The position numbers and the translations under genes were made by a program. Of a stretch of 64,000 nucleotides of DNA, positions 48,001 to 64,000 are shown piece after piece (position 1 is the stretch's first letter; each line of letters opens with the position of its first letter). Source of the stretch: Auanema rhodensis (Eukaryota; Animalia; Nematoda); assembly GCA_964057225.1 (NCBI GenBank), contig OZ059895.1, positions 3,348,001 to 3,412,000 on the forward strand, read 5' to 3'. Under the pieces are notes generated by a model. The model did no database searches and was not told where the DNA came from. It worked only from the letters and a program-made list of their open reading frames with translations.

Positions 48001-48339
48001 CTTCAAAGCATCAGAACAAGTGATCACATTCCAATTTTTTTGAAATCTATCTTGTAAAGATAGTAATAAACTTTGATTTTTGTACACCCATAAATTATAC
48101 GCAGCACAGGTTACCCTTAAATAATGAACTGACCGACTAATCAGACATGGATCTTTCCAAGTTTTGTTGCTTGAATGGATGTTTTCCTACGTAGGCTAGT
48201 AAAACATGCCCTTCAAAGCATCAGAACATGTGACCACATTCCAATTTTTTTGTATCTATCTTGTAAAGATAGTAATATATCATATGTTGAACACTATGTT
48301 GGAAAGATTTTAATTCAGATTTTCTAACTTTTATTCAGT
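1..48339 (+). repeat. Tandem satellite DNA array, 294/295-bp monomer with 209/210-bp and 167-bp deletion variants (roughly 170-180 monomers; begins before the window)
   Basis: The same unit (...GTACACCCATAAATTATACGCAGCACAGGTTACCCTTAAATAATGAACTGACCGACTAATCAGACATGGATC...CCTACGTAGG...) recurs continuously. Measured spacings: 391->686 = 295, 686->980 = 294, 3412->3621 = 209, 4210->4420 = 210, 4420->4881 = 294+167. The array stops mid-monomer at ...TTATTCAGT|48340. Confidence 0.99.
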
Positions 48340-48675
48340 CGTTCCATTCGGATGATCAATACGTAGCAGGCGGGTTAGAGCTAGACGACAAGAGACGAGA
48401 GGAGCTGACACGCCCTTTATATGGAACTCAGACTTTAGTTCTGTCTCATGGAATGACTAAGGATGGCTTGTCATCTCCTCAGAGCTCACCTATAGTTTAT
48501 ATCTCTTTATTTCTTATCGTAACTTATTGTAATCATTATGTAGAATAAACCTTTCTTTTCATGAGTCTTATGTTATCCATTATGCTCTATTAATACCGCT
48601 ACATCTGGAACACTATATCGCACATCTTATAGACTACATTGGTCTATAGGATAGATACGAGAGCATAACGGAACG
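48340..48675 (+). repeat. 5' LTR (336 bp)
   Basis: Direct repeat of 59498-59833 with 5 substitutions. Starts CGTTCC and ends GGAACG (6-bp terminal inverted repeat). TATA-like TTTATAT at 48416-48422 and AATAAA at 48544-48549. Confidence 0.97.
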
Positions 48676-48688
48676 TGGAGGTTCCACC
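48676..48688 (+). promoter_or_regulatory. Primer-binding site, tRNA-Gln
   Basis: TGGAGGTTCCACC directly abuts the 5' LTR and is the reverse complement of the 3' end of eukaryotic tRNA-Gln (...GGUGGAACCU-CCA), 13 nt. Confidence 0.9.
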
Positions 48689-49807
48689 TCGAACGTTTCT
48701 TTTACTATTCTCTTATTTTCTTAAATTTTATTCACTCTTGCAATATTCATTTTCTTTTCAACTTTCTCTTATCCATTGCCATCTTCTCCACGCTAAAACA
48801 CAAAACGGAGGGGCCAACATCGTTATAGGGAACAGATGCAAGGAACTCTCATAATAAGAGAGAAAAATTACACATTTTGGGAAGAATTTATTTTACTTGA
48901 TCCCGTTGTTCACAATTTTGTCATGTCTGAACCTAAGTCACATATCCTTGCTATTAACATCTGATTATACTGTTACCCGACCTCGAAGCCACATGAGGAC
49001 TTTAGGTTGAATTCGTGAACAGATTCACCTAAAGATTTTATATATATTTTGATTATTACCCACACCATTCTCCTTTTAAGGATTGATTTCGGCTTTGAGG
49101 AAAGAATAACTCCAGTTATTTCTTAAATTTTGTGGATGAAAAGCATGCCAATTTGAATTTTAAATAATTTTGCGATAAGGACTATTATATTTTGCGTTTA
49201 AAATCGTTCAGACAACTTTTAGCATTTACCATCCAAAAACATAACAAAACGCTTAAAAATCGTACGGGAAACCTCACAACAAGTGAGAGGATGTTTAATT
49301 TAATAACTTACATTCGCTATAGTCCGAAAAATCCTGCGATATTCTTACAAACTGATCTCCCAATTTAAATTTATTCGTCAGGTCGAGTTGGCTAAAGCAT
49401 ATTAGTTGGATTTTCTCCCCATACTATATGTCACCTTCCTCATACCGTTTTGTTGTTTAGAAACATGAGACTCAATTCCAAATCATCTTATTCTTTTTAT
49501 AATTTCGTATAGTTCTTGTAAATTTTAGTCAGCTATGTAACTTCAATATTATAAAACGAGATCTTTGGTTTGCAAAACGACTACGGTAGATTTCTTAAAA
49601 AAGATCCTTACTTCCCGTTGAACCATGAACGAACGAATTAAGTATGCAATTGGGACTAGTAATTCTTCTTGGATAGAGTGATGGATTACCAAAGTCTAAT
49701 TTTAATGCAACTTTTTGGAATGCCTAAGGGAGTTTGCGACTAAAAATCAAAAAATTCTATAAAAAAGAGAAGGGAATAAGCCCATTGAGACCAGGCAATC
49801 ATCCATA

Positions 49808-50011
49808 ATGCGTGCAAAGAGAAAAGAAAAATGCAAATGCTATACAAATTGGACCCAAAAGACCAAGATAACCAAAGTCCAATTTCAAAGTACGGTAGAA
49901 GGCGGATCTAAAGTTATGGCCAGAACCTTAGATTCATTCCTATCCTTCCGACTTGACCAAACCAGTTGTCAGTCTCAATCTAGCTTTTCCCAACTTACCA
50001 CCAACAACTAA
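49808..50011 (+). other. Short upstream ORF (67 aa) in the same reading frame as the polyprotein
   Basis: ATG at 49808, TAA at 50009-50011. The frame is then open from 50012 to 58771. No recognisable homology. Confidence 0.3.
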
Positions 50012-50101
50012 ACGTACATACCCACCCAATTACGTTCAAATTCCATCATCCCACACGTAATCAGACACTCGAGGTTTTTTCAAACCAAGAGTCCTAACAA
50101 G

Positions 50102-53100
50102 GTGGAGAGAAGGTATAACTCAGCAGTACCTCTCAGTACGCACTCCAACCCGGATCCCCGCGACTCAGCTCCAGTAACCAGAAGCCGAACTCGCGCGCAA
50201 AGTGTCGCCATTATCAACGAAGACACAGCAGAGGAGAAGCCTAACGTGGAAAAATTTTACACGCCCCGTGCAGGTACGTTTTCTCCTTCAGAACGTTCTA
50301 GTGATCCGGACTACATACCATCTGGAGACGACGAGCGACCCTTGGTGATAGACGAACAGACACCGAACACCACTACGAAAGAAAAGGTACGCTCTTCCAA
50401 TATACATAAAAATAAAAATAATAAAAATCTAAATAATTCTGATATCTCTCTCTCTCTCTCAAGTCAAGAACCTACTGGTTCACCTTCAACTACAGGCTTA
50501 CAATCTCTCAAAAACAAAGTCGTTGATTTATTGAATCGCTCACCCAAAGACCCAAACCCAAAATCTAGCCGAGCACAGCGACTTGCTACAATACCCAATA
50601 CATACACGCGCTATACGTTATCTCCAATCACCTCACCGGAGCAAAGAAAACTTTTGAAAAATAACCCACAAACATCAACCCCAATTCTCAATAGTCCAAG
50701 ATTAGACGAATTGACGACACCTAACCAATATAACCAAACAGAGCACATTACTCCTACGTCAGGAAGTTCAAGATCTGCACATACAGTAATAGCTGTTCCG
50801 AAAAAAATGACTGAGCCCGCAACCAATTTACCCGGAGCGGGGAAAACAACAATTGCCCAAGTTTTAACATCACCCTACTGCCCTGTTTATGACGGTAGCC
50901 GCAATTTCCGCGACTTTACCGCTAAATTTAATGTCTTCGCTAATGCACTTGGCCTAGTGATACCTGAAAGGTTGACTCTTCTGCCGTTGCTTCTTAAAAA
51001 TGATGCGGCAGAAGAAGCATACAAACAAACTCCTGAACACCTTAAAACGTCGGGTTCATGGAATGATTTGTTAGCAGCTTTAACATCAAAGCTCTGCCCT
51101 GAATATAATCAGGACCCAGCACTGATCAGCCTTCAAAACACTAGTCAAGGGGATCTTTCGATTGATGCCTTTGCTCAGGCTTTGCGAACAATAAGCCTTA
51201 GTGCTTTTGCCAGTGATGACCCACATAAGGATCACATACTAAGATCAACCTTCCTGAGAGGACTTAAAAATACTCTGAAGGCAGGAGTGATCCGAGCAAG
51301 GCCCAAAACCTTTGCTGAGGCGATTGAGGCTGCTCGCTGGGAAGAATCAATATTGAACCAGACAGCAGACACTCAGGCGATGCTAGTGAATGCAGTTAAC
51401 CAAGCACTAGCTCCCTTTACGCGCAATAAAGAGAGAAGAGATAACAGAACTTTTGACCGAAGTTACCAGCGCGGTAATCAAAATTATCAAAATTATCAAA
51501 ATTATCAAACAAATAAAAACCGTTCAAATTATAACAATTTCCAACAACGTAATAATAATTTTGGAAATAATCGCCGTCCAAATAATTTTGGAAGAAATAA
51601 CGAGCGTCAAAACAGCAATAATGGTACTAATTGGTACCAAAATAATTATAATCCTCGATATAACAATCAAGGAGGAAGAAATGGACAAAGGCGAGTACAA
51701 TTTAAAGAACGAAGAAACCAATCGAGAGGAAGAGATAGGAGCTCTTCAAGAGTTAACTCCATCTCTCTTTCACCACTCTCATTAACTGTTGTAATGGCAT
51801 TAGCAGCAGCAATACTGCTACCTTGTGCGTCAAGCTACCAAGCATGCACAAAAGCAACAGGGGGAGCACTACTCATGCCTCCAACATTAAAGAAATGCAA
51901 ATTAACAGAAGCAAACCACGTGATCCAAACACAAGTCCATCTATACACTCGCAATCACACAGCTCACGAGTGGGACGCGTGGCGCTGCTCGAAGGAAGTG
52001 CACAGGCTGTGTGTACGCGATTTATTATTCCTTCGCGACAGCAACAAAACAATCGATAGGATAGAGCCTATAAGCGTGCAGTCATGCAGGCAGGCAATTC
52101 GCGATCGAAAGTGGAATAATATGGAACTAGAAAGAATCGATAGTATTGCCCAAGCAACCCCTGAACCCTCCTTCGATCCGGCGCGAGCGTTTAGCCGCGA
52201 CGAGTGCGAGGAGCGGTCGCGTTTAGTACTGGAGCGGGGTGTTATGACCCGCATGCCAGACGATACCATCCTTTCAAACTTACTACTAAACACTGAAGGG
52301 TGCAGTGCGCATCATGGTAACTGCAAATCAAAAAATTCAATAATTATTTGGGATCCACAAACTACGGATTCCCGTTGCAATTACATAGATATGCACACAT
52401 ATGAAGCCATCATTAGCGGCGATACTATCCTAATTCCGAGCACACAATCTGCTCTTATCCTTTCGAACAAACCAACCCCAAAACCTATCGCTTCGTGTTT
52501 TAGACAATCAGCATTTCACACAACATCGGGGAACTACATCATACTCCCCAAATTTCCAAATGACAATAACATTACTATCCTCGTAGAAAGAGAGTTTAGA
52601 AAATTGCCGTTTAAAAGACAAAAACGCGCAATCGCTACAGGATGTTCATTCCCTTTAGACCAAGATAGAGTAATGGAAGTTGAAGATTTTGAGACTCATA
52701 CGCTTCACATATGCCCATATGCCTTTTTGAGACCAATTATGAGCAATCCGGGCATTACGCAGATTATCTCTTTAATCAAAGGAAGACGAATGGCAGATCC
52801 CACGTACTCTTTAAAAGAATGGATAACTGCTAATCGCGAGAAATTTGAATTTTTCTTTAAAATCCAAATTTATGATAAATCCTTAAGACATTTTCTTAAA
52901 CAATACGATTTTCGCGATAAAGATGAAGCAATCCTACAATATGTTGCACAAAGAGAACTGGCGTTAGCAACAAAGACAGGAATATCTTATCTAACACCCA
53001 AACAATTACTTCAACAAATATCTGATCGGTTAACTGTTATTGAATTCGATCGCATTCTTCATACCAAAGAAGGCACTTATCGGGAAAGAACTGAAAGTAT

Positions 53101-56100
53101 TGCGCTTGATTTAGCTAATACCCCAGTCATAATCGAAGAAAACCTCACTGTTCCATCTAGACAAGAAGTGTTACAATCTTTTGTGAAATTACCACCGATA
53201 CGACAAAAGATACTAACAAATGAAGAAGCACAAAAGAGCGAATTCATACAAGAAACAATTAATCTTGTAACCGAACTTAAAACTCTCATAAAAATTAGGA
53301 AAAACAAAACAGCAGCAGACATTGATGAGATGAAATTTATTAATCTTCCTGCATCACGAATGTTTGTACAAAATACTGATAAACTGTTCTACGATATCAA
53401 AAATAATTTTGGAATACCAATCGGTCCACACCCTAAGCTCATCAAGCCTAGTAAAATCTCTAAAGATTTATTATTGAAAATTTTCTTGCCACTACTTGCT
53501 GAAAAGAAATTGCCTTATACTTCAAGTAGAATATCACCAGAACACCTAAGGAGACTAATGGCAGAGAAACTCGAGCTTGAATCGCTGCAAACCACGACGC
53601 GTACGCCGAGCGTCGCTGCAGGCGGCGCGGCAGCAACATCAGCCCAACCCATAATCGATCGGAAGACGACCATCGAATCAGATCCCGCAATGCAGCCGCA
53701 TGCAATAACAAGCCCTCAAGCAACCGCAGCGACTACCGCGCGCGCGCCATCGTCGACAGCCGAGCCGAAAATAACAGAGAGCTACACAACCGCAACAACT
53801 ACCGCACGCGCGACAATATCGACTAGCCAGGCGCCAACATCAACAAAGCTCTACGCCACTTATAAAGATCAACAAATTCCAATAATGGACGAAATAACAT
53901 ACTTACCCACGACATTGATTCGAAAACAGAGAGCTTCATCAACACCAACAGCAAAAGAAATACAGTCTGTTCAGGCTCAAGCTCATTACATAGCTTCGAA
54001 AATTGACTCGGAAGAACAGTATCGCCAAAACATTACGAGCAAGATTGCACAAGATCATTTGCAATACGCCACAACAATGATTCAAAGCGAGCTACAGAAA
54101 CATTTCAAAGAGTCATACGAATCAATATGTGAGATCCAAAATAGATATCTAGAGCTATGGCGATCAATTTTACAAATCGAACCAACAATCGCTATGCGTA
54201 CTATCCTTGGAAGAGAAGACATAGCAGCTCGTTTTGTTGGAAGTGAGATATTACACGTACATGTTTGCCCAACAGTTTTCACAAAAACTATTTATCACAA
54301 TCACACGGTAAACAATACATGTTATCTCGAAACGCCAATTTTAACCGAAGAAGGCCAATTACTATTCGCAGCACCAGGATCAAAAGATCTTCTACCCCAC
54401 GGAAAAGAAATCAATTGTGATCACGTACCAACAGACGTATGGTCAGCAGACGGTGAATGGAAAGGAATCAATGGCACTGTAGATGTCAGTCTCATATCCA
54501 TGGGAGATGGACTGCATCACGAAAAGATCACACCATTAAAATTCACTGGAGCACACCTTTACACTAATTTAACATCACGTGTATACTCCATGACCACAGC
54601 CATTGCTTATGGTGCTAGTTTAGCGTCAATCCGTCAAAATCATGTACTTCATACAATTCACAATGATCCTAAAATATCAGCCGCCTATAGTGTTTTAAAG
54701 AAGAGTAGTGACTACATATCTAAAGCACACGAATTCACAAAAAACACTTGGAATTCATTCATTGATACGATGGTAGGGACAATCGAACGAACACTAATTA
54801 CAATTGGTGCAATCACATCTGTTATAATAATTGTGATCATACTAGCATTTATCATCAAGGTCTACTTCCTCAAATCAATTCCGATACCAGTCATGCACAT
54901 TGAACTGAAGGATCGAAATAGTAACCCACCTACATACGAAGAAACCTTAGAGCTAGTTACTCAACCTGATCAACCCATTCCAAGAAACATAATGAAGCAA
55001 TACTACCCATCAATACTGACGTATATACCAATTGCAATACCATTGGTTTGTTCAATTTCAAAAAGGAAAGATCAATCTTTACCACTATTATGGATGACTG
55101 TTAATGACAGATTAGTCCTCACCTTATGGGATTCAGGATCATCTATCAGTTATATCAGAGTATCAACACTACATTACTTGACTTTAAACGACTTTGTAAA
55201 GAACAATAAATCAAGTGCTACAACAGCAAACGGATCAGAATTTCGATTCATCGGTACAATAGATCTAACCGTCGAAATTGCCGGATATGAAATCGATCAT
55301 ACATTCTATATATCCAACGATGAAGACTGCCCTTCACCAGCATTAATTGGATTAGATTTCATGAAGACACTTGACAGTCAAAACATTGGCATGAAACTTA
55401 GACCATACAAAAGGACACTAGAAATTGGAAACCGCGTAGTACGGTTAGCTAATGGAATTGACGGAAGACTCAGCAAAACATCAACAACTGTCAATCTGAT
55501 TAACTTAAAACAGCGAGATATGCTTCCAAACGAAACTTGTACACTACAAGTTCAATTAGAAAAACCCATCAGAGACGATTCTTTCGCGATGCTCTCGATA
55601 GATAATAACAAAATGCTAACACCCAAATACCATACAGCATTTCGCGATGTTAATTCCATTGATATCACGTTCAAAAACAACTCCAACAAATTTATTGAAT
55701 TACCATCAGGACACGTAATTACTAAAGCTGAGATAGGAATCATGCCTGACTATGAAATCTTCACAACTGATCAAAAACAAGACTATATTCCACCTGAAGC
55801 TGATTGGGAAAGTAAATTACCTACTTTTCCAACTGATTTTATGAAAGAACTTGATCTAAAAGATGCCGATCTTACACAAAATCTTAAAGATCATTTACGT
55901 TCTATAATTCGCAGACGAAAAAAGGCTTTCCTCAATGAAGACAAAAATATAGGACTGTTCAAAGGCCCTGTAGAACACAGCATACCATTAAGAACTGACA
56001 TGGATATGCCTAAACCTAGGATCACTCGTATACCCTTAGGAAAACAAGAGGAAATTGAAAGACAAGTACAGGAAATGCTTCAACAAGGAATAATCGAACC

Positions 56101-58771
56101 ATCAACATCACTGTTCAATAGTCCTGTTGTATTAGTGAAGAAAAAGGACGATACATTTCGTTTTGTAACTGATTTCCGCGCCTTAAACAACGTTACACGG
56201 AAGCAAACATATGTAATTCCTAATATCTCCGACATTATTGATATGGCAGCTGGATCAAAATATTTTTCCAATTTTGATTTAGTTTCTGGATTTTTCCAAA
56301 TACCATTAAAGAAATCAGACCGATCCTTAACAGCCTTCACAACAAATACGGGAACGTATCAATACAGAAGGATGCCTATGGGATTATGTGGCGCTCCACA
56401 TACCTTCCAAACTGCGGTACGATATCTTCAAAGCAGATGCAAATGCAGACTATTCGTTTACTTAGACGATCTACTTGTTATATCAGATAATGCAGAACAA
56501 CACATATATGATATTGAAGAAGTACTCGAAAGAATTGAAGAACTAGGATTGAAGATAAAGCTCAAGAAATGCTCATTTGCTAGACCAGAAGTCAAATTTC
56601 TTGGGTTAATTGTTGGAAGAGATGGAGTTAAGCCTGATCCAAAGAAAGTTTCCGCCATCCAAGACTATCCTGCTCCACAGTCACCTACGGGAGTTAGAGC
56701 ATTTTTGGGAATGGTAGGATTCTTTCGGAAATTCATTAAAGACTTTGCTCACATCGCAAGCCCTCTATATGATCTCACAAAACTGGACACAGATTTCAAA
56801 TGGTCAGACCAGTGCCAACAAGCGCTAGAAAAATTAAAGAAAAGATTAATAGAAGCACCAGTACTGAAACCACCAAGAGCAGATCGTACTTTCATAATTG
56901 AAAGCGATGGCAGCAATATAGCCATCGGAGCAGTACTGTTACAACCTGAAGATCCGAATGAACCTTTGAAAAACTTACATCCTATTGCTTTTGCAAGTAG
57001 AAAATTAGTTAAAGCCGAACGAAACTATCCTCCTATTGAGATCGAAGCCCTAGGATTAGTATACGCGCTTGCTCAGTTTCGGACTTATATACTTGGATCA
57101 CACGCAATATGCATTACGGATCACCGACCATTAACAAGCTTAATGACACGAAGAGATTTGTTTGGAAGACTAGCAAAATTTCAATTAGTAATACAGGAAT
57201 ACAACATTGAGATCAGATATCGTGAAGGTAGACTAAACAAAGTCTGTGACGCTCTTTCACGATACATTGGAGACGAAGCTAATGATCCAAAGCCAGAAAA
57301 GAAAAAGAAAGTTAAAGAGCCTCAACTTGCTCAGGTTAACTTTGTTAACATACCAGACATTAAACAAATACAAGGCAATACACCTTGGATCAAAAAGACA
57401 ATTGCCGAAATTGAATACAGAACAAAGAAAAACATGCTCTCCAATGATCGTTATTGTGTAATTGATAACATGCTGTACACAAAACCGAGCACGAAAAGAC
57501 CACACCCAGCCTTAGTTTTACCACGAGAGAGCGAACTGATCAGCAAGATCATCGAAGAATTTCATGAAGACCCAGCAATCGGGGCACATCAAGGAATTAA
57601 TAAAACTAAAGAAGCCATATTACGAAGATTCTTCTGGACAAATATGCAAACGGACATAGCAATTTTTGTGAAACAATGCGTTAAATGCGCACAAAGGAAG
57701 AAAGACCCTCATGCTATGACCGTTCAGCCAATGGGTCAATTCGAAATACCATCTAAACCATTTGAGAGAATACATATGGATATCATGGGACCCTTCCCAA
57801 CATCAAAAAGAAACAACAACTACGTTCTTACAATCCAGGACTCTTTTTCCAAATGGGCGACAACTATTGCTATACCTACAATAGTTACGGACGTTGTCAT
57901 CGACAGATTCCTCAGAAATTTTGTATACATTTATGGACCTCCAAATCGACTAATAACAGATCGAGGTTCCAATTTTGTATCAAAGAAATTCGAAAATATG
58001 TGTGATAAACTCGGCATAAAACATGAACCAACACTCCCGCATCAGAAGAACTCTAACGGACAAGTGGAAAGACTACATAGGACGTTAGAAGAAGGATTAA
58101 CACATTATTTGAACGAAGAAATTACTGATTGGGACTTATTTTTGCCAAAAGTCACCTTTGCGTTAAACACCACAACACACTCAACAACAGGAATATCACC
58201 ATATATAGCTTTATTCGGAAAAGAAAGTCGTATGAGACTCGATAAAGAATTATCACCTGAAACACCGGAATCAGGAACAATATCCATTGATATAGAAAAC
58301 ATGGAACAACTTCGTCAAGAAAGAAAATCTCTCATTCAAGATAACTTGGAAAAACATCAGCAACAAGCAAAGAAGAAACACGATTCAAGACAACGAATTG
58401 AAGAAAGGGACATCCGTGAAGGAGACCAAGTTATGTTGACCATTAAGTCACATAAAATAGGTCAAAAGCTGAGGAAATGTTATGATGGACCCTTTGAGGT
58501 CATCAAAGTAAAAGGATCAATGGTACAAATCAAGAATCCTTTTGGAAAACTCCAAGATATACACAAAGACAACTTGAAACTTTTCAATCGAAGTTCAACA
58601 TGTGGAGCAGCACACAACACTCGCTCCAAAGCTAGAAACAGCGACTCAGATGACGACAGTGACATCGAAATTATCGAAGTTATACACGGAGACAATAACG
58701 AAGAATTAGACACCGAAATTGACTCAGAAGACCCATCAGATCATAATTGGATACCATCAAGAAGAAGATAA
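50102..58771 (+). CDS. Gag-Env-Pol polyprotein (single ORF, 2889 codons from GTG; first in-frame ATG at 50807)
   Basis: No stops or frameshifts over 8.67 kb; domain motifs are listed in the sub-features. The true start is uncertain (GTG 50102, ATG 50807 in an AAAAAAATG context, or spliced). Confidence 0.95.
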   Translation: MERRYNSAVPLSTHSNPDPRDSAPVTRSRTRAQSVAIINEDTAEEKPNVEKFYTPRAGTFSPSERSSDPDYIPSGDDERPLVIDEQTPNTTTKEKVRSSNIHKNKNNKNLNNSDISLSLSSQEPTGSPSTTGLQSLKNKVVDLLNRSPKDPNPKSSRAQRLATIPNTYTRYTLSPITSPEQRKLLKNNPQTSTPILNSPRLDELTTPNQYNQTEHITPTSGSSRSAHTVIAVPKKMTEPATNLPGAGKTTIAQVLTSPYCPVYDGSRNFRDFTAKFNVFANALGLVIPERLTLLPLLLKNDAAEEAYKQTPEHLKTSGSWNDLLAALTSKLCPEYNQDPALISLQNTSQGDLSIDAFAQALRTISLSAFASDDPHKDHILRSTFLRGLKNTLKAGVIRARPKTFAEAIEAARWEESILNQTADTQAMLVNAVNQALAPFTRNKERRDNRTFDRSYQRGNQNYQNYQNYQTNKNRSNYNNFQQRNNNFGNNRRPNNFGRNNERQNSNNGTNWYQNNYNPRYNNQGGRNGQRRVQFKERRNQSRGRDRSSSRVNSISLSPLSLTVVMALAAAILLPCASSYQACTKATGGALLMPPTLKKCKLTEANHVIQTQVHLYTRNHTAHEWDAWRCSKEVHRLCVRDLLFLRDSNKTIDRIEPISVQSCRQAIRDRKWNNMELERIDSIAQATPEPSFDPARAFSRDECEERSRLVLERGVMTRMPDDTILSNLLLNTEGCSAHHGNCKSKNSIIIWDPQTTDSRCNYIDMHTYEAIISGDTILIPSTQSALILSNKPTPKPIASCFRQSAFHTTSGNYIILPKFPNDNNITILVEREFRKLPFKRQKRAIATGCSFPLDQDRVMEVEDFETHTLHICPYAFLRPIMSNPGITQIISLIKGRRMADPTYSLKEWITANREKFEFFFKIQIYDKSLRHFLKQYDFRDKDEAILQYVAQRELALATKTGISYLTPKQLLQQISDRLTVIEFDRILHTKEGTYRERTESIALDLANTPVIIEENLTVPSRQEVLQSFVKLPPIRQKILTNEEAQKSEFIQETINLVTELKTLIKIRKNKTAADIDEMKFINLPASRMFVQNTDKLFYDIKNNFGIPIGPHPKLIKPSKISKDLLLKIFLPLLAEKKLPYTSSRISPEHLRRLMAEKLELESLQTTTRTPSVAAGGAAATSAQPIIDRKTTIESDPAMQPHAITSPQATAATTARAPSSTAEPKITESYTTATTTARATISTSQAPTSTKLYATYKDQQIPIMDEITYLPTTLIRKQRASSTPTAKEIQSVQAQAHYIASKIDSEEQYRQNITSKIAQDHLQYATTMIQSELQKHFKESYESICEIQNRYLELWRSILQIEPTIAMRTILGREDIAARFVGSEILHVHVCPTVFTKTIYHNHTVNNTCYLETPILTEEGQLLFAAPGSKDLLPHGKEINCDHVPTDVWSADGEWKGINGTVDVSLISMGDGLHHEKITPLKFTGAHLYTNLTSRVYSMTTAIAYGASLASIRQNHVLHTIHNDPKISAAYSVLKKSSDYISKAHEFTKNTWNSFIDTMVGTIERTLITIGAITSVIIIVIILAFIIKVYFLKSIPIPVMHIELKDRNSNPPTYEETLELVTQPDQPIPRNIMKQYYPSILTYIPIAIPLVCSISKRKDQSLPLLWMTVNDRLVLTLWDSGSSISYIRVSTLHYLTLNDFVKNNKSSATTANGSEFRFIGTIDLTVEIAGYEIDHTFYISNDEDCPSPALIGLDFMKTLDSQNIGMKLRPYKRTLEIGNRVVRLANGIDGRLSKTSTTVNLINLKQRDMLPNETCTLQVQLEKPIRDDSFAMLSIDNNKMLTPKYHTAFRDVNSIDITFKNNSNKFIELPSGHVITKAEIGIMPDYEIFTTDQKQDYIPPEADWESKLPTFPTDFMKELDLKDADLTQNLKDHLRSIIRRRKKAFLNEDKNIGLFKGPVEHSIPLRTDMDMPKPRITRIPLGKQEEIERQVQEMLQQGIIEPSTSLFNSPVVLVKKKDDTFRFVTDFRALNNVTRKQTYVIPNISDIIDMAAGSKYFSNFDLVSGFFQIPLKKSDRSLTAFTTNTGTYQYRRMPMGLCGAPHTFQTAVRYLQSRCKCRLFVYLDDLLVISDNAEQHIYDIEEVLERIEELGLKIKLKKCSFARPEVKFLGLIVGRDGVKPDPKKVSAIQDYPAPQSPTGVRAFLGMVGFFRKFIKDFAHIASPLYDLTKLDTDFKWSDQCQQALEKLKKRLIEAPVLKPPRADRTFIIESDGSNIAIGAVLLQPEDPNEPLKNLHPIAFASRKLVKAERNYPPIEIEALGLVYALAQFRTYILGSHAICITDHRPLTSLMTRRDLFGRLAKFQLVIQEYNIEIRYREGRLNKVCDALSRYIGDEANDPKPEKKKKVKEPQLAQVNFVNIPDIKQIQGNTPWIKKTIAEIEYRTKKNMLSNDRYCVIDNMLYTKPSTKRPHPALVLPRESELISKIIEEFHEDPAIGAHQGINKTKEAILRRFFWTNMQTDIAIFVKQCVKCAQRKKDPHAMTVQPMGQFEIPSKPFERIHMDIMGPFPTSKRNNNYVLTIQDSFSKWATTIAIPTIVTDVVIDRFLRNFVYIYGPPNRLITDRGSNFVSKKFENMCDKLGIKHEPTLPHQKNSNGQVERLHRTLEEGLTHYLNEEITDWDLFLPKVTFALNTTTHSTTGISPYIALFGKESRMRLDKELSPETPESGTISIDIENMEQLRQERKSLIQDNLEKHQQQAKKKHDSRQRIEERDIREGDQVMLTIKSHKIGQKLRKCYDGPFEVIKVKGSMVQIKNPFGKLQDIHKDNLKLFNRSSTCGAAHNTRSKARNSDSDDDSDIEIIEVIHGDNNEELDTEIDSEDPSDHNWIPSRRR
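50807..51751 (+). other. gag: Gag region: capsid-like domain followed by an N/Q/R-rich low-complexity nucleocapsid-position segment
   Basis: PVYDGSRNFRDFTAKF start and FLRGLKNTLKAGVIRARPKTFAEAIEAARWEE end are typical of Ty3/gypsy capsid. No CCHC knuckle; QNY x3 repeat at 51479-51505. Confidence 0.85.
51752..55045 (+). other. env: Envelope glycoprotein region, herpesvirus gB / class III fusogen-like
   Basis: Hydrophobic signal-like LSLTVVMALAAAILLPCASS (~51776-51835); Cys-rich ectodomain with about 10 N-x-T sequons; furin RQKR (52616-52627); S/T/A/P-rich stretch (53582-53850); gB-like CEIQNRYLELWRSILQIEPTIAMRTILGREDIAARFVGSEILHVHVC (54128-54268) followed by CYLETP; TM helix (54791-54871). Confidence 0.85.
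55058..55450 (+). other. Retropepsin-type aspartic protease domain
   Basis: LWDSGSSISYI (catalytic D at 55130), TANGS flap-like motif, ALIGLDFM. Boundaries approximate. Confidence 0.9.
55950..56850 (+). other. Reverse transcriptase domain
   Basis: IIEPSTSLFNSPVVLVKKKD, FVTDFRALN, FDLVSGFFQI, TAF, RMPMGL, YLDD (56459-56470), FLG. Boundaries approximate. Confidence 0.97.
56885..57265 (+). other. RNase H domain
   Basis: ESDGSNIAIGAVLLQ, PIAFASRKL..AERNY, EIEAL, TDHRPL, CDALSR. Confidence 0.95.
57540..58590 (+). other. Integrase (HHCC zinc-binding, DDE core, GPF/GPY module)
   Basis: FHEDPAIGAHQG...CVKC; IHMDIMGP, ITDRGSNF, NGQVERLHRTL; YDGPFEV. No chromodomain visible. Confidence 0.95.
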
Positions 58772-59461
58772 AACAACCACATTGATTATACTCTTGTTAA
58801 AAATTTTGCATAAAAATCGTTTTAAGGAAACTAGAGCTAAAAATTAATTTTACCAACACAAACAACAGATAGATGAGCAGTAAGCTATAACTTGATGAGC
58901 AGTCATGTTTCAAGCACATCGAAAAAAAAATATATATATAATAATAGCTACAAATTATCATAAAAGTTACTCCAATCTCAAATAATTTCCCCTAAAAACC
59001 CGAAGAAATGAAAGATGAGAGACATTATATTGCAATCAAAGCTGAGCAACAGTCATCATCAAGTAATTAATGATTCATTTCCGGAAATTATACGGGATTG
59101 TTTTAATAATTCCAAACAAATAATGTTTTCTTTCAAAACTGAAGAAACAGCCTAGCTTCATTGAGAGTATAACTTAGCTCTCGCTACTCTGCTCTATATT
59201 GGTTAGACATACAGCGTCGTGCCCAAAAAGCTACTTTCATGCACTTTCGCTGTCAAAATATAGCTCTAGTATTCTTAAAAGATTGTGCTTTTGCTTTATA
59301 CTCATGTATTATTTTATTTAAAACTTATTAAATCCTTTTTAGACAATATTGTTGAGGTTAATATTGTATAATTTTGTATTATTTGAACAACAACAATGTA
59401 TTTTAACAAGTAAATCCTCTAAACCTCTTGCTACGATTGAAACAAGCCACACATTTTGATA

Positions 59462-59477
59462 GTCGCGAGGACGCGAC
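59462..59477 (+). promoter_or_regulatory. Short hairpin GTCGCG-AGGA-CGCGAC upstream of the plus-strand priming site
   Basis: Perfect 6-bp inverted repeat with a 4-nt loop, 20 nt before the 3' LTR. Similar GAGGAC-centred hairpins precede the PPT in many gypsy elements. Confidence 0.55.
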
Positions 59478-59485
59478 ATAAACTC

Positions 59486-59497
59486 GAAAAAATGGCA
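59486..59497 (+). promoter_or_regulatory. Candidate polypurine tract (weak)
   Basis: GAAAAAATGGCA (10 of 12 purines) directly precedes the 3' LTR. Confidence 0.55.
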
Positions 59498-59833
59498 CGT
59501 TCCATTCGGATGATCAATACGTAGCAGGCGGGTTAGAGCTAGACGACAAGAGACGAGAGGAGCTGACACGCCCTTTATATGGAACTCAGACTTTAGTTCT
59601 GTCTCATGGAATGACTAAGGATGGCTTGTCATCTCCTCAGAGCTCACCTATAGTTTATATCTCTTTAATTTTTATCGTAACTTATTGTAATCATTATGTA
59701 GAATAAACCTTTCTTTTCATGAGTCTTATGTTATCCATTATGCTCTATTAATACCGCTACATCTGGAACACTGTATCGCACATCTTATAGACTACATTGG
59801 TCTAAAGGATAGATGCGAGAGCATAACGGAACG
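59498..59833 (+). repeat. 3' LTR (336 bp)
   Basis: CGTTCC...GGAACG; 331/336 identical to the 5' LTR; AATAAA at 59702-59707. Confidence 0.97.
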
Positions 59834-62800
59834 AGCCTACGTAGGAAAACATCCGTTCAAGCAACAGAACTTGGGAAGATCCATGTCTGATTAGACGGTC
59901 AGTTTATTATTTAAGGGTAACCTGTGCTGCGTATAATTTATGGGTGTACAAAAATCAAAGTTTATTACTATCTTTACAAAATAGATACAAAAAAATTGGA
60001 ATGTGATCACATGTTCTGATGTTTTGAAGGGCATGTTTTACTAGCCTACGTAGGAAAACATCCATTCAAGCAACAGAACTAGGAAAGATCCATGTCTGAT
60101 TAGTCGGTCAGTTCATTATTTAAGGGTAACCTGTGCTGCGTATAATTTATGGGTGTACAAAAATCAAAGTTCTTAATCAAAGTTTAAAAAACAAACTGAA
60201 TAAAAGTTAGAAAATCTGAATTAAAATCTTTCCAACATAGTGTTCAACATATGATATATTACTATCTTTACAAAATAGATACAAAAAAATTGGAATGTGA
60301 TCACATGTTCTGATGCTTTGAAGGGCATGTTTTACTAGCCTACGTAGGAAAACATCCGTTCAAGCAACAGAACTTGGGAAGATCCATGTCTGATTAGACG
60401 GTCAGTTCATTATTTAAGGGTAACCTGTGCTGCGTATAATTTATGGGTGTACAAAAATCAAAGTTTATTACTATCTTTACAAAATAGATACAAAAAAATT
60501 GGAATGTGATCACATGTTCTGATGTTTTGAAGGGCATGTTTTACTAGCCTACGTAGGAAAACATCCATTCAAGCAACAGAACTTGGGAAGATCCATGTCT
60601 GATTAGACGGTCAGTTCATTATTTAAGGGTAACCTGTGCTGCGTATATTTTATGGGTGTACAAACAACAAGGTTCTTAATCAAAGTTTAGAAAACAAACT
60701 GAGTGAAAGTTGAAAAAATCTGAATTAAAATCTTTCCAACATAGTGTTCAACATATGATATATTACTATCTTTACAAGATAGATACAAAAAAATTGGAAT
60801 GTGATCACATGTTCTGATGCTTTGAAGGGCATGTTTTACTAGCCTACGTAGGAAAACATCCGTTCAAGCAACAGAACTTGGGAAGATCCATGTCTGATTA
60901 GACGGTCAGTTCATTATCTAAGGGTAACCTGTGCTGCGTATAATTTATGGGTGTACAAAAATCAAAGTTTATTACTATCTTTACAAAATAGATACAAAAA
61001 AATTGGAATGTGATCACATGTTCTGATGTTTTGAAGGGCATGTTTTACTAGCCTACGTAGGAAAACATCCATTCAAGCAACAGAACTAGGAAAGATCCAT
61101 GTCTGATTAGTCGGTCAGTTCATTATTTAAGGGTAACCTGTGCTGCGTATAATTTATGGGTGTACAAAAATCAAAGTTCTTAATCAAAGTTTAAAAAACA
61201 AACTGAATAAAAGTTAGAAAATCTGAATTAAAATCTTTCCAACATAGTGTTCAACATATGATATATTACTATCTTTACAAGATAGATACAAAAAAATTGG
61301 AATGTGATCACATGTTCTGATGCTTTGAAGGGCATGTTTTACTAGCCTACGTAGGAAAACATCCATTCAAGCAACAGAACTAGGAAAGATCCATGTCTGA
61401 TTAGTCGGTCAGTTCATTATTTAAGGGTAACCTGTGCTGCGTATAATTTATGGGTGTACAAAAATCAAAGTTTATTACTATCTTTACAAGATAGATACAA
61501 AAAAATTGGAATGTGATCACATGTTCTGATGCTTTGAAGGGCATGTTTTACTAGCCTACGTAGGAAAACATCCATTCAAGCAACAGAACTAGGAAAGATC
61601 CATGTCTGATTAGACGGTCAGTTCATTATTTAAGGGTAACCTGTGCTGCGTATATTTTATGGGTGTACAAACAACAAGGTTCTTAATCAAAGTTTAGAAA
61701 ACAAACTGAGTGAAAGTTGAAAAAATCTGAATTAAAATCTTTCCAACATAGTGTTCAACATATGATATATTACTATCTTTACAAAATAGATACAAAAAAA
61801 TTGGAATGTGATCACATGTTCTGATGCTTTGAAGGGCATGTTTTACTAGCCTACGTAGGAAAACATCCGTTCAAGCAACAGAACTTGGGAAGATCCATGT
61901 CTGATTAGACGGTCAGTTCATTATTTAAGGGTAACCTGTGCTGCGTATAATTTATGGGTGTACAAAAATCAAAGTTTATTACTATCTTTACAAAATAGAT
62001 ACAAAAAAATTGGAATGTGATCACATGTTCTGATGTTTTGAAGGGCATGTTTTACTAGCCTACGTAGGAAAACATCCATTCAAGCAACAGAACTTGGGAA
62101 GATCCATGTCTGATTAGACGGTCAGTTCATTATTTAAGGGTAACCTGTGCTGCGTATATTTTATGGGTGTACAAAAATCAAAGTTCTTAATCAAAGTTTA
62201 GAAAACAAACTGAGTGAAAGTTGAAAAAATCTGAATTAAAATCTTTCCAACATAGTGTTCAACATATGATATATTACTATCTTTACAAGATAGATACAAA
62301 AAAATTGGAATGTGATCACATGTTCTGATGCTTTGAAGGGCATGTTTTACTAGCCTACGTAGGAAAACATCCGTTCAAGCAACAGAACTTGGGAAGATCC
62401 ATGTCTGATTAGACGGTCAGTTCATTATCTAAGGGTAACCTGTGCTGCGTATAATTTATGGGTGTACAAAAATCAAAGTTTATTACTATCTTTACAAAAT
62501 AGATACAAAAAAATTGGAATGTGATCACATGTTCTGATGTTTTGAAGGGCATGTTTTACTAGCCTACGTAGGAAAACATCCATTCAAGCAACAGAACTAG
62601 GAAAGATCCATGTCTGATTAGTCGGTCAGTTCATTATTTAAGGGTAACCTGTGCTGCGTATAATTTATGGGTGTACAAAAATCAAAGTTCTTAATCAAAG
62701 TTTAAAAAACAAACTGAATAAAAGTTAGAAAATCTGAATTAAAATCTTTCCAACATAGTGTTCAACATATGATATATTACTATCTTTACAAGATAGATAC

Positions 62801-64000
62801 AAAAAAATTGGAATGTGATCACATGTTCTGATGCTTTGAAGGGCATGTTTTACTAGCCTACGTAGGAAAACATCCATTCAAGCAACAGAACTAGGAAAGA
62901 TCCATGTCTGATTAGTCGGTCAGTTCATTATTTAAGGGTAACCTGTGCTGCGTATAATTTATGGGTGTACAAAAATCAAAGTTTATTACTATCTTTACAA
63001 GATAGATACAAAAAAATTGGAATGTGATCACATGTTCTGATGCTTTGAAGGGCATGTTTTACTAGCCTACGTAGGAAAACATCCATTCAAGCAACAGAAC
63101 TAGGAAAGATCCATGTCTGATTAGACGGTCAGTTCATTATTTAAGGGTAACCTGTGCTGCGTATATTTTATGGGTGTACAAACAACAAGGTTCTTAATCA
63201 AAGTTTAGAAAACAAACTGAGTGAAAGTTGAAAAAATCTGAATTAAAATCTTTCCAACATAGTGTTCAACATATGATATATTACTATCTTTACAAGATAG
63301 ATACAAAAAAATTGGAATGTGATCACATGTTCTGATGCTTTGAAGGGCATGTTTTACTAGCCTACGTAGGAAAACATCCATTCAAGCAACAGAACTAGGA
63401 AAGATCCATGTCTGATTAGACGGTCAGTTCATTATTTAAGGGTAACCTGTGCTGCGTATATTTTATGGGTGTACAAACAACAAGGTTCTTAATCAAAGTT
63501 TAGAAAACAAACTGAGTGAAAGTTGAAAAAATCTGAATTAAAATCTTTCCAACATAGTGTTCAACATATGATATATTACTATCTTTACAAGATAGATACA
63601 AAAAAATTGGAATGTGATCACATGTTCTGATGCTTTGAAGGGCATGTTTTACTAGCCTACGTAGGAAAACATCCATTCAAGCAACAGAACTTGGGAAGAT
63701 CCATGTCTGATTAGACGGTCAGTTCATTATTTAAGGGTAACCTGTGCTGCGTATATTTTATGGGTGTACAAACAACAAGGTTCTTAATCAAAGTTTAGAA
63801 AACAAACTGAGTGAAAGTTGAAAAAATCTGAATTAAAATCTTTCCAACATAGTGTTCAACATATGATATATTACTATCTTTACAAGATAGATACAAAAAA
63901 ATTGGAATGTGATCACATGTTCTGATGCTTTGAAGGGCATGTTTTACTAGCCTACGTAGGAAAACATCCGTTCAAGCAACAGAACTTGGGAAGATCCATG
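59834..64000 (-). repeat. Same satellite family in inverted orientation (continues beyond the window)
   Basis: AGCCTACGTAGGAAAACATCCGTTCAAGCAACAGAACTTGGGAAGATCC is the reverse complement of the left-array monomer. Unit starts at 59834, 60043, 60337, 60546, 60841 and onward. Confidence 0.99.

Follow-up and report, generated by a model that had tools for sequence, protein, structure and literature searches.

How does one continuous polyprotein place its parts with respect to a membrane when an envelope glycoprotein stands between Gag and Pol? This question is raised by an element in a 64,000-nucleotide stretch of the nematode Auanema rhodensis (GenBank assembly GCA_964057225.1, contig OZ059895.1, positions 3,348,001 to 3,412,000), here called the window; all positions below are those of the window and all features lie on the forward (+) strand. 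The single, uninterrupted gag-env-pro-RT-RH-IN open reading frame (ORF; 50807..58771, 2,654 aa) encodes, according to Pfam matches and Kyte-Doolittle (KD) hydropathy, Gag, a signal sequence, an Env of the glycoprotein B (gB) type, a transmembrane segment (TM), protease (PR), reverse transcriptase (RT), RNase H (RH) and integrase (IN) in this order. The element is an intact Ty3/gypsy long terminal repeat (LTR) element and belongs to a kind already published from nematodes, GAG-ENV-POL (Chary & Hayashi 2026, eLife, PMC13524379). Its polyprotein is very probably a two-pass protein of the endoplasmic reticulum (ER) membrane, with Gag and Pol predicted on the cytosolic side and the gB-type Env on the luminal side.

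The ORF contains only two strongly hydrophobic 19-mers, at aa 324-342 and aa 1331-1350. The first (51776-51832; KD 2.18) forms the h-region of a putative internal signal sequence (51776..51835, aa 324-343) and is followed by an A-S-S|Y c-region. An earlier note on this DNA had described such a signal-peptidase-like end and a basic stretch in front of it, and both are present: the segment closes with L-P-C-A-S-S|Y, with Y344 at 51836, and RGRDRSSSR (aa 307-315) lies just upstream of 51752. The position of aa 555 given there for the signal has to be corrected, as numbering from the ATG at 50807 gives aa 324-343. The second segment (54797..54856, aa 1331-1350; KD 2.97) is the most hydrophobic of the whole ORF and represents the predicted Env transmembrane anchor, or stop-transfer segment, in agreement with the strong TM noted before after the ectodomain. 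The cytosolic tail proposed between this anchor and the protease can likewise be recognized, measuring ~65 aa to the likely N-terminal site of the protease and 91 aa to the catalytic Asp1442.

Relatives show the same two segments. A profile search yielded 1,125 proteins, and the counts given here for relatives rest on the best 150 of these (155 proteins examined). In 66 of the 155, a protease D[ST]G motif lies at most 500 aa from the C-terminal core of Env; left out were 13 proteins without the D[ST]G motif, one by distance and the rest because one domain was missing. A single TM was found in 64 of the 66 proteins, while the other two had none at the cut-off used and were dropped from later counts. 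On a summed insertion scale the TM of these 64 proteins scores -3.2 and the second-best segment +10.5 (medians), and the net charge is higher after the TM than before it in 56 of them, tied in five and lower in three. On the 5' side, 47 proteins contain the N-terminus of Env, and 38 of them a capsid as well. A hydrophobic 12-mer (KD at least 1.9) directly precedes mature Env in 37 of these 38 Gag-Env proteins, as opposed to 2% of 797 Pol windows. With a stricter 15-mer, one segment before Env was counted in 29 proteins, none in eight, three in one and two in none (n=38). Inside the ectodomain, no hydrophobic segment was found in any of the 27 full-length examples. The distribution of sequons in these 27 proteins also fits a luminal Env: their observed-to-expected ratio is 1.45 in the ectodomain (202 versus 140), compared to 0.90 in Gag (112 versus 125) and a mildly raised 1.18 in tail plus Pol (163 versus 138). 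Overall, the topology put forward in the earlier note, with cytosolic Gag, luminal Env and a cytosolic, membrane-tethered Pol, is strongly supported by the relatives (37/38 for the signal, 64/66 for the TM).

Pol would instead face the lumen if the stretch ILTYIPIAIPLVC (55013-55051, aa 1400-1418) were a third TM. Its 19-mer KD value reaches 1.48, and a KD 15-mer of at least 2.0 occurs here in this element and in P0001 and P0005 (three of 27 full-length proteins). However, the stretch contains three prolines, its summed insertion score of about +6.5 compares with +0.8 for the signal and -4.0 for the TM, and most relatives have a polar sequence in the corresponding region (FVPRIY, EEYPI). None of the 64 relatives has a second segment at TM grade (score at most +2), and even a limit of +4 is reached in just two. 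In addition, RT and integrase are unable to reach RNA or chromatin from the lumen. We therefore regard a third TM as very improbable.

Several points still weigh against the two-pass topology. The insertion scores are plain sums of hydrophobicity-scale values without position terms. The (-3,-1) rule of signal peptidase is met by 34 of the 38 junctions but also by 57% of control windows, making it a weak test. Two sequons within Pol are kept in four of four sequences, and the hydrophobicity of the third stretch in three of the 27 full-length proteins has to be counted here as well.

The predicted luminal part is a class III fusion ectodomain of the gB/Monjiviricetes type (51836..54796) with 14 core cysteines and 10 sequons. 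Pfam detects the Monjiviricetes fusion glycoprotein and herpesvirus gB at aa 1082-1356, and a phmmer search of the PDB gave weak gB matches only (best E 0.002). A fold predicted from 50 sequences has a mean pLDDT of 69; its N- and C-terminal cores are confident, whereas the insert is poorly resolved. The model matches herpesvirus gB with a Foldseek E of 3e-11, and mononegaviral G proteins match as well. Superposition on prefusion gB of Epstein-Barr virus (EBV) gave a VIA Z of 16.3 and a root-mean-square deviation of 4.9 over 362 aa, the structural match beginning at model residue 1, immediately after the signal. The ten cysteines of the N-terminal core are kept in three of three aligned sequences and the four of the C-terminal core in four of four. 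As to furin, which had been named as one of three proteases acting on the polyprotein, the motif match RQKR (52616..52627) is present in this element, but such a site is not general, since R-x-[KR]-R occurs in 17 of the 27 full ectodomains. Directly behind it lies an insert of ~450 aa (52628..53986), a helical part followed by a Thr/Ser-rich mucin-like part, without a Pfam match. The ectodomain is long, with 984 aa compared to a median of 740 aa and a range of 526-997 aa among the 27 relatives. The insert could possibly serve as a receptor-binding or shield domain.

Motifs of the type V-[NH]-x-[IVLM] recur at domain borders of the relatives. In this element, motif searches and alignment point to VNAV after the capsid (51386..51397), to VNSI (51752..51763), where the motif RVN|SI stands directly before the signal and a cytosolic cut would free Gag from its anchor, and to VNFV at the RH/IN border (57335..57346) as likely protease sites. 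VMHI (54890..54901) aligns with the TM-proximal VN-type motif of the relatives. The Pro-rich hydrophobic strand 55013..55057, which ends with VCSI (55046-55057), is likely the N-terminal site of the protease rather than a TM. VN-type motifs follow the capsid in 13 of 38 relatives (1.2 in shuffled sequences) and precede the signal in 14 of 38 (0.9); they occur after the TM in 30 of 64 (2.8) and before the protease in 29 of 64 (5.5). The strict pattern occurs four times in this ORF, three times at domain borders. It speaks against these assignments that the patterns were set after viewing the sequences, with letter sets differing per site, and that the TM-proximal VMHI falls outside the strict pattern. 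On balance, V-N-x-[IVL]-type motifs on the cytosolic side of both anchors are probably sites of the element's own protease.

The cytosolic spacer between TM and protease carries PPTY (54926..54937), a late-domain-type motif of the PPxY class. ESCRT-I and Nedd4 ligases act in the cytosol. PTAP binds ESCRT-I and PPxY binds Nedd4 ligases (PMC2958808). P[ST]AP was found in this spacer in 13 of 64 relatives, about 40-fold above shuffled spacers (mean 0.31, maximum 3); after clustering at 40% identity it is present in 11 of the 38 clusters (0.31 expected). Nine of eleven other orderings of the same letters score 0 and the remaining two 5 and 3. The spacer has 2.7 P[ST]AP plus PPxY motifs per 1,000 aa, compared to 0.27 for the part upstream of it and 0.05 for Pol. 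P[ST]AP is scattered over the relatives' tree, a quick version without bootstrap from whose drawing the scatter was read and then checked by clustering. On this tree the present element and P0001 (PPTY and PPSY) are sister to the PSAP-bearing P0002. Among 40 further, mostly fragmentary proteins, P[ST]AP occurs in three, and another relative has PPQY at the aligned place. P[ST]AP often stands right behind the TM-proximal VN-type site, so that the motif would be released within a p6-like peptide.

Whether these motifs are late domains is nevertheless debatable, and several observations count against it. PPxY alone is not enriched (2/64 versus 1.17, p 0.33), 49 of the 64 spacers have neither P[ST]AP nor PPxY, and shuffled spacers were the sole control for the enrichment of P[ST]AP. 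ALIX-type YPxL is not enriched in the spacers (3/64 versus 2.3). Instead of serving in budding, the Pro-rich motifs might be relics of an ancestral Gag-protease spacer or might direct Env sorting and turnover, for example endosomal degradation of excess Env-Pol. The motifs' absence from most spacers would suit this explanation, Nedd4 and ESCRT are established to sort membrane proteins for degradation as well, and such turnover would also ease the stoichiometry problem discussed below. However, the roughly 40-fold excess of the exact P[ST]AP, with its reorderings mostly absent, and its recurrence in 11 clusters, often behind a VN-type site, argue against a relic or a sorting signal, which we consider rather unlikely. 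A functional late domain is the reading that we favor by a modest measure, as judged from motif statistics.

A further difficulty is the 1:1:1 stoichiometry which, according to the earlier note, would follow from the layout unless splicing or early polyadenylation supplies extra Gag, as would a coupling of assembly on one membrane. The predicted masses are 36 kDa for Gag, 115 kDa for Env and 142 kDa for Pol. With a capsid copy count of 540, the same number of Pol copies would fill a sphere of 28 nm radius, which counts against a tight one-to-one assembly. As the outer radius of the Ty3 particle is ~25 nm (PMC6525542), strict 1:1:1 packaging is unlikely, and this misfit requires that additional Gag is supplied, that Pol is lost or that the particle is of another kind. 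It is thus conceivable that the topology holds but that Gag, and perhaps Pol, is mostly made from other RNA forms or that excess Env-Pol is degraded; capsids would then assemble cytosolically, like those of Ty3, and encounter Env afterwards, without tight coupling on one membrane. Apart from the packing argument, this alternative would agree with the direct assembly of a mature-like capsid by Ty3 (PMC6525542) and with the one-ORF element Cer1, which makes a spliced second protein and has no stop between gag and pol (PMC10309623). Two AATAAA hexamers lie within the nucleocapsid (NC) region. Moreover, contigs of a related copy (~95% alike) join 50386 to 52615 in three of three runs, and the skipped part begins with GT, so that a donor may exist in the leader. 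On the other hand, no AG|GT[AG] donor was found at 50800-55100, where a single weak acceptor-like site occurs, and TTTCAG[GA] is found nowhere in the element. A Gag-only RNA would be without a stop codon, and the joined form lacks gag, the greater part of env, and pol. The same contigs also join 52688 to 58574, leaving a short form composed of the leader, of 74 nt from env and of the 3' end. This second joint has a 4-nt microhomology and no GT-AG, and it therefore looks like that of an internally deleted copy. The short form is likely a non-autonomous derivative, although the first joint may be a splice, and it represents neither Gag alone nor Pol alone. The three presumed-RNA runs, all from one study, leave most of the ORF uncovered and say nothing on expression. 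A literature search on Tf1 stoichiometry gave no match. Taken together, we see a main supply from other RNA forms, and likewise the separate formation of capsids in the cytosol, as unlikely.

Considering these alternatives, we still think it likely that a two-pass polyprotein is combined with Env glycosylation, late-domain scission and release of its parts by the protease. According to this proposal, the internal signal (aa 324-343) would start translocation once Gag has been made, and signal peptidase would cut at A-S-S|Y. Env would then fold and become glycosylated and, in this element, be cut by furin at RQKR. The TM (aa 1331-1350) would stop transfer, leaving the spacer and Pol in the cytosol, where the spacer motif, PPTY here and P[ST]AP in many relatives, would likely recruit Nedd4 or ESCRT for membrane scission. 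The element protease, likely dimerized by clustering of Env trimers, would finally cut the V-N-x-[IVL]-type sites. Gag would thereby be detached from its signal anchor and Pol from the TM, and the spacer would come free as a small p6-like peptide. A bolder, speculative and in our view improbable extension is an 'inside-out' budding, in which the Env-anchored polyprotein would line the membrane with Gag hung by its C-terminal end and Pol by its N-terminal end. In this model, the late domain that recruits ESCRT would reside in the Env tail itself, and capsid formation would have to wait until the protease has freed the parts inside the envelope.

The gene order itself has been published: GAG-ENV-POL elements with a gB-type Env exist in nematodes, bryozoans and flatworms, and this Env has either a signal on one side and a TM on the other or a TM on both sides (PMC13524379). 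The transmission of errantiviruses with gB-type Env is unknown (PMC13524379, section 11). With nematode GAG-ENV-POL errantiviruses the present element shares a Ty3/gypsy pol, an Env of the HSV/gB (herpes simplex virus) type between gag and pol, nematode relatives, a tRNA-Gln primer-binding site (PBS) as in Caenorhabditis elements, the signal and TM flanks and a furin site that is not always kept (PMC13524379). Its own features are the 984-aa ectodomain with the helical and mucin-like insert, PPxY in place of P[ST]AP, and an ATG-less leader frame. Nematode GAG-ENV-POL elements with a continuous ORF, termed NERVs, have reportedly also been described by Sacco et al. (2022, J Gen Virol), and one continuous ORF would thus be a further shared feature. 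What is added here is family-wide support for the topology, together with likely cleavage sites of the protease near each of the two anchors and a late-domain signal within the tail of Env. The main text of PMC13524379 does not contain the terms polyprotein, late domain, PTAP, ESCRT, budding or cytoplasmic tail. Judged by title and the start of the abstract, none of the papers retrieved deals with the topology of these elements or with their late domains, although the report by Sacco et al., which was outside our reach, may discuss topology. The literature compared also included PMC3315495 and bioRxiv 2026.03.22.711591.

The likeness to the anchored capsid of flaviviruses, drawn in the earlier note, gains a matching feature, as RVN|SI, a motif of the protease type, immediately precedes the signal. 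In flavivirus C-prM, too, the capsid is followed by a segment that serves as anchor and signal, with signal peptidase cutting on the luminal side and the viral protease on the cytosolic one; the latter cut, made by NS2B-3, is paralleled here by the VN-type site (PMC7601889). However, the likeness is one of working only, as the proteins are unrelated: the protease is of the aspartyl instead of the serine type, the fusogen of class III instead of class II, and the Env TM of the present element bears the enzymes directly. Atlas virus of hookworm (Belpaoviridae; PMC9094657) is likewise a nematode LTR element with one polyprotein and internal glycoproteins, but it has the order Gag-Pol-Env, with Env last and no enzyme after the TM, a class II phlebovirus-like Env and a BEL/Pao pol. 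Membership in the Belpaoviridae was rejected, as Gag-Pol-Env order, class II Env and CCHC fingers are all absent here. Retroviral late domains of the p6 type also place P[ST]AP or PPxY in a short NC-protease spacer bounded by protease-type sites, whereas here the whole Env separates the spacer from Gag and the spacer hangs on the Env TM.

At its N-terminal end, the ORF contains a Ty3-type capsid domain (50993..51364, aa 63-186), recognized by a weak Pfam match under the curated cut-off and aligned with P0001 and P0003, and an N/R/Q-rich basic, likely NC-like region (51407..51751), which has no zinc knuckle and ends with RGRDRSSSR. No CCHC knuckle was found in the clade of this element; one is kept in Gag of P0069, P0075, P0076, P0081, P0088, P0116, P0128 and P0143, whose ectodomains are mostly short. 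Upstream of the ORF, an ATG-less open frame of 265 codons (50012..50806) continues in the same frame; it is S/T/P/R-rich and has no Pfam match. Its openness by chance would have a probability of ~1e-6, and 12 of 22 listed differences fall on third positions, 11 of them synonymous. It may encode a leader protein or an N-terminal extension of Gag, and the ATG at 50807 is a tentative start codon of the ORF. Past one stop (50009-50011), the frame is open for 82 more codons with two ATGs (49763-50806). P0003 also has a basic S/T/P-rich N-terminal extension, containing RTRAQ, and the contig of a more distant family member (depth 34-49) matches 50159-50335 in three of three runs.

The Pol part comprises an aspartyl protease with DSG motif (55094..55366, aa 1430-1520; catalytic Asp1442), the RT core (56135..56611), RNase H (56801..57202) and an integrase with H2C2, rve core and a weak SH3 domain (57530..58519), all identified by Pfam. 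Near the C-terminus of the ORF stands HNTRSKARN (58610-58640), which we take to resemble arginine-anchor nucleosome-binding motifs. LTRs, a PBS and the PR-RT-RH-IN order, together with Pfam matches to a retrotransposon gag/Ty3-type capsid and RNase H, are features of the Metaviridae (Ty3/gypsy). The closest named relatives in protein searches are from Auanema and Caenorhabditis, and 13 of 20 further matches looked up bear nematode names, the other seven being without a species name. Word-index protein searches found four relatives only, and locus scans of metagenome and viral contigs none. Cer1 was rejected as a match because no env separates its gag from its pol.

The element is bounded by a pair of 336-bp LTRs (5' LTR 48340..48675, 3' LTR 59498..59833) with five mismatches between them; the resulting identity of 98.5% is just below the bar of >99% for recent activity used in PMC13524379. 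Their termini CGTTCC...GGAACG form an inverted pair without the usual TG...CA. Directly 3' of the 5' LTR lies a PBS of the tRNA-Gln type (48676..48687), the reverse complement of which equals the Gln 12-mer given for two Caenorhabditis elements (PMC13524379, Supplementary file 1). The rest of the window (1-48339 and 59834-64000) is nearly all one satellite with units of 294/295, 209/210 and 167 bp, and the element sits where the 295/209-bp array flips its orientation (48030-60400). No target-site duplication was found at its flanks in that region; this and the five LTR mismatches are consistent with two insertions that recombined or with a join made in assembly.

The layout also suggests where env entered such elements: the order NC, Env, spacer and PR would place the insertion between NC and the old Gag-protease spacer. 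That exact P[ST]AP has been kept in many lineages indirectly indicates continued production of enveloped particles by these elements. Together, the two-pass layout, the likely protease sites and the late motif lead to peptide-level predictions for the processing and cell exit of nematode GAG-ENV-POL elements. If the 'inside-out' model were true, it would represent a third assembly route for reverse-transcribing viruses, unlike the Gag-driven budding of retroviruses or the cytosolic capsids of Ty3.

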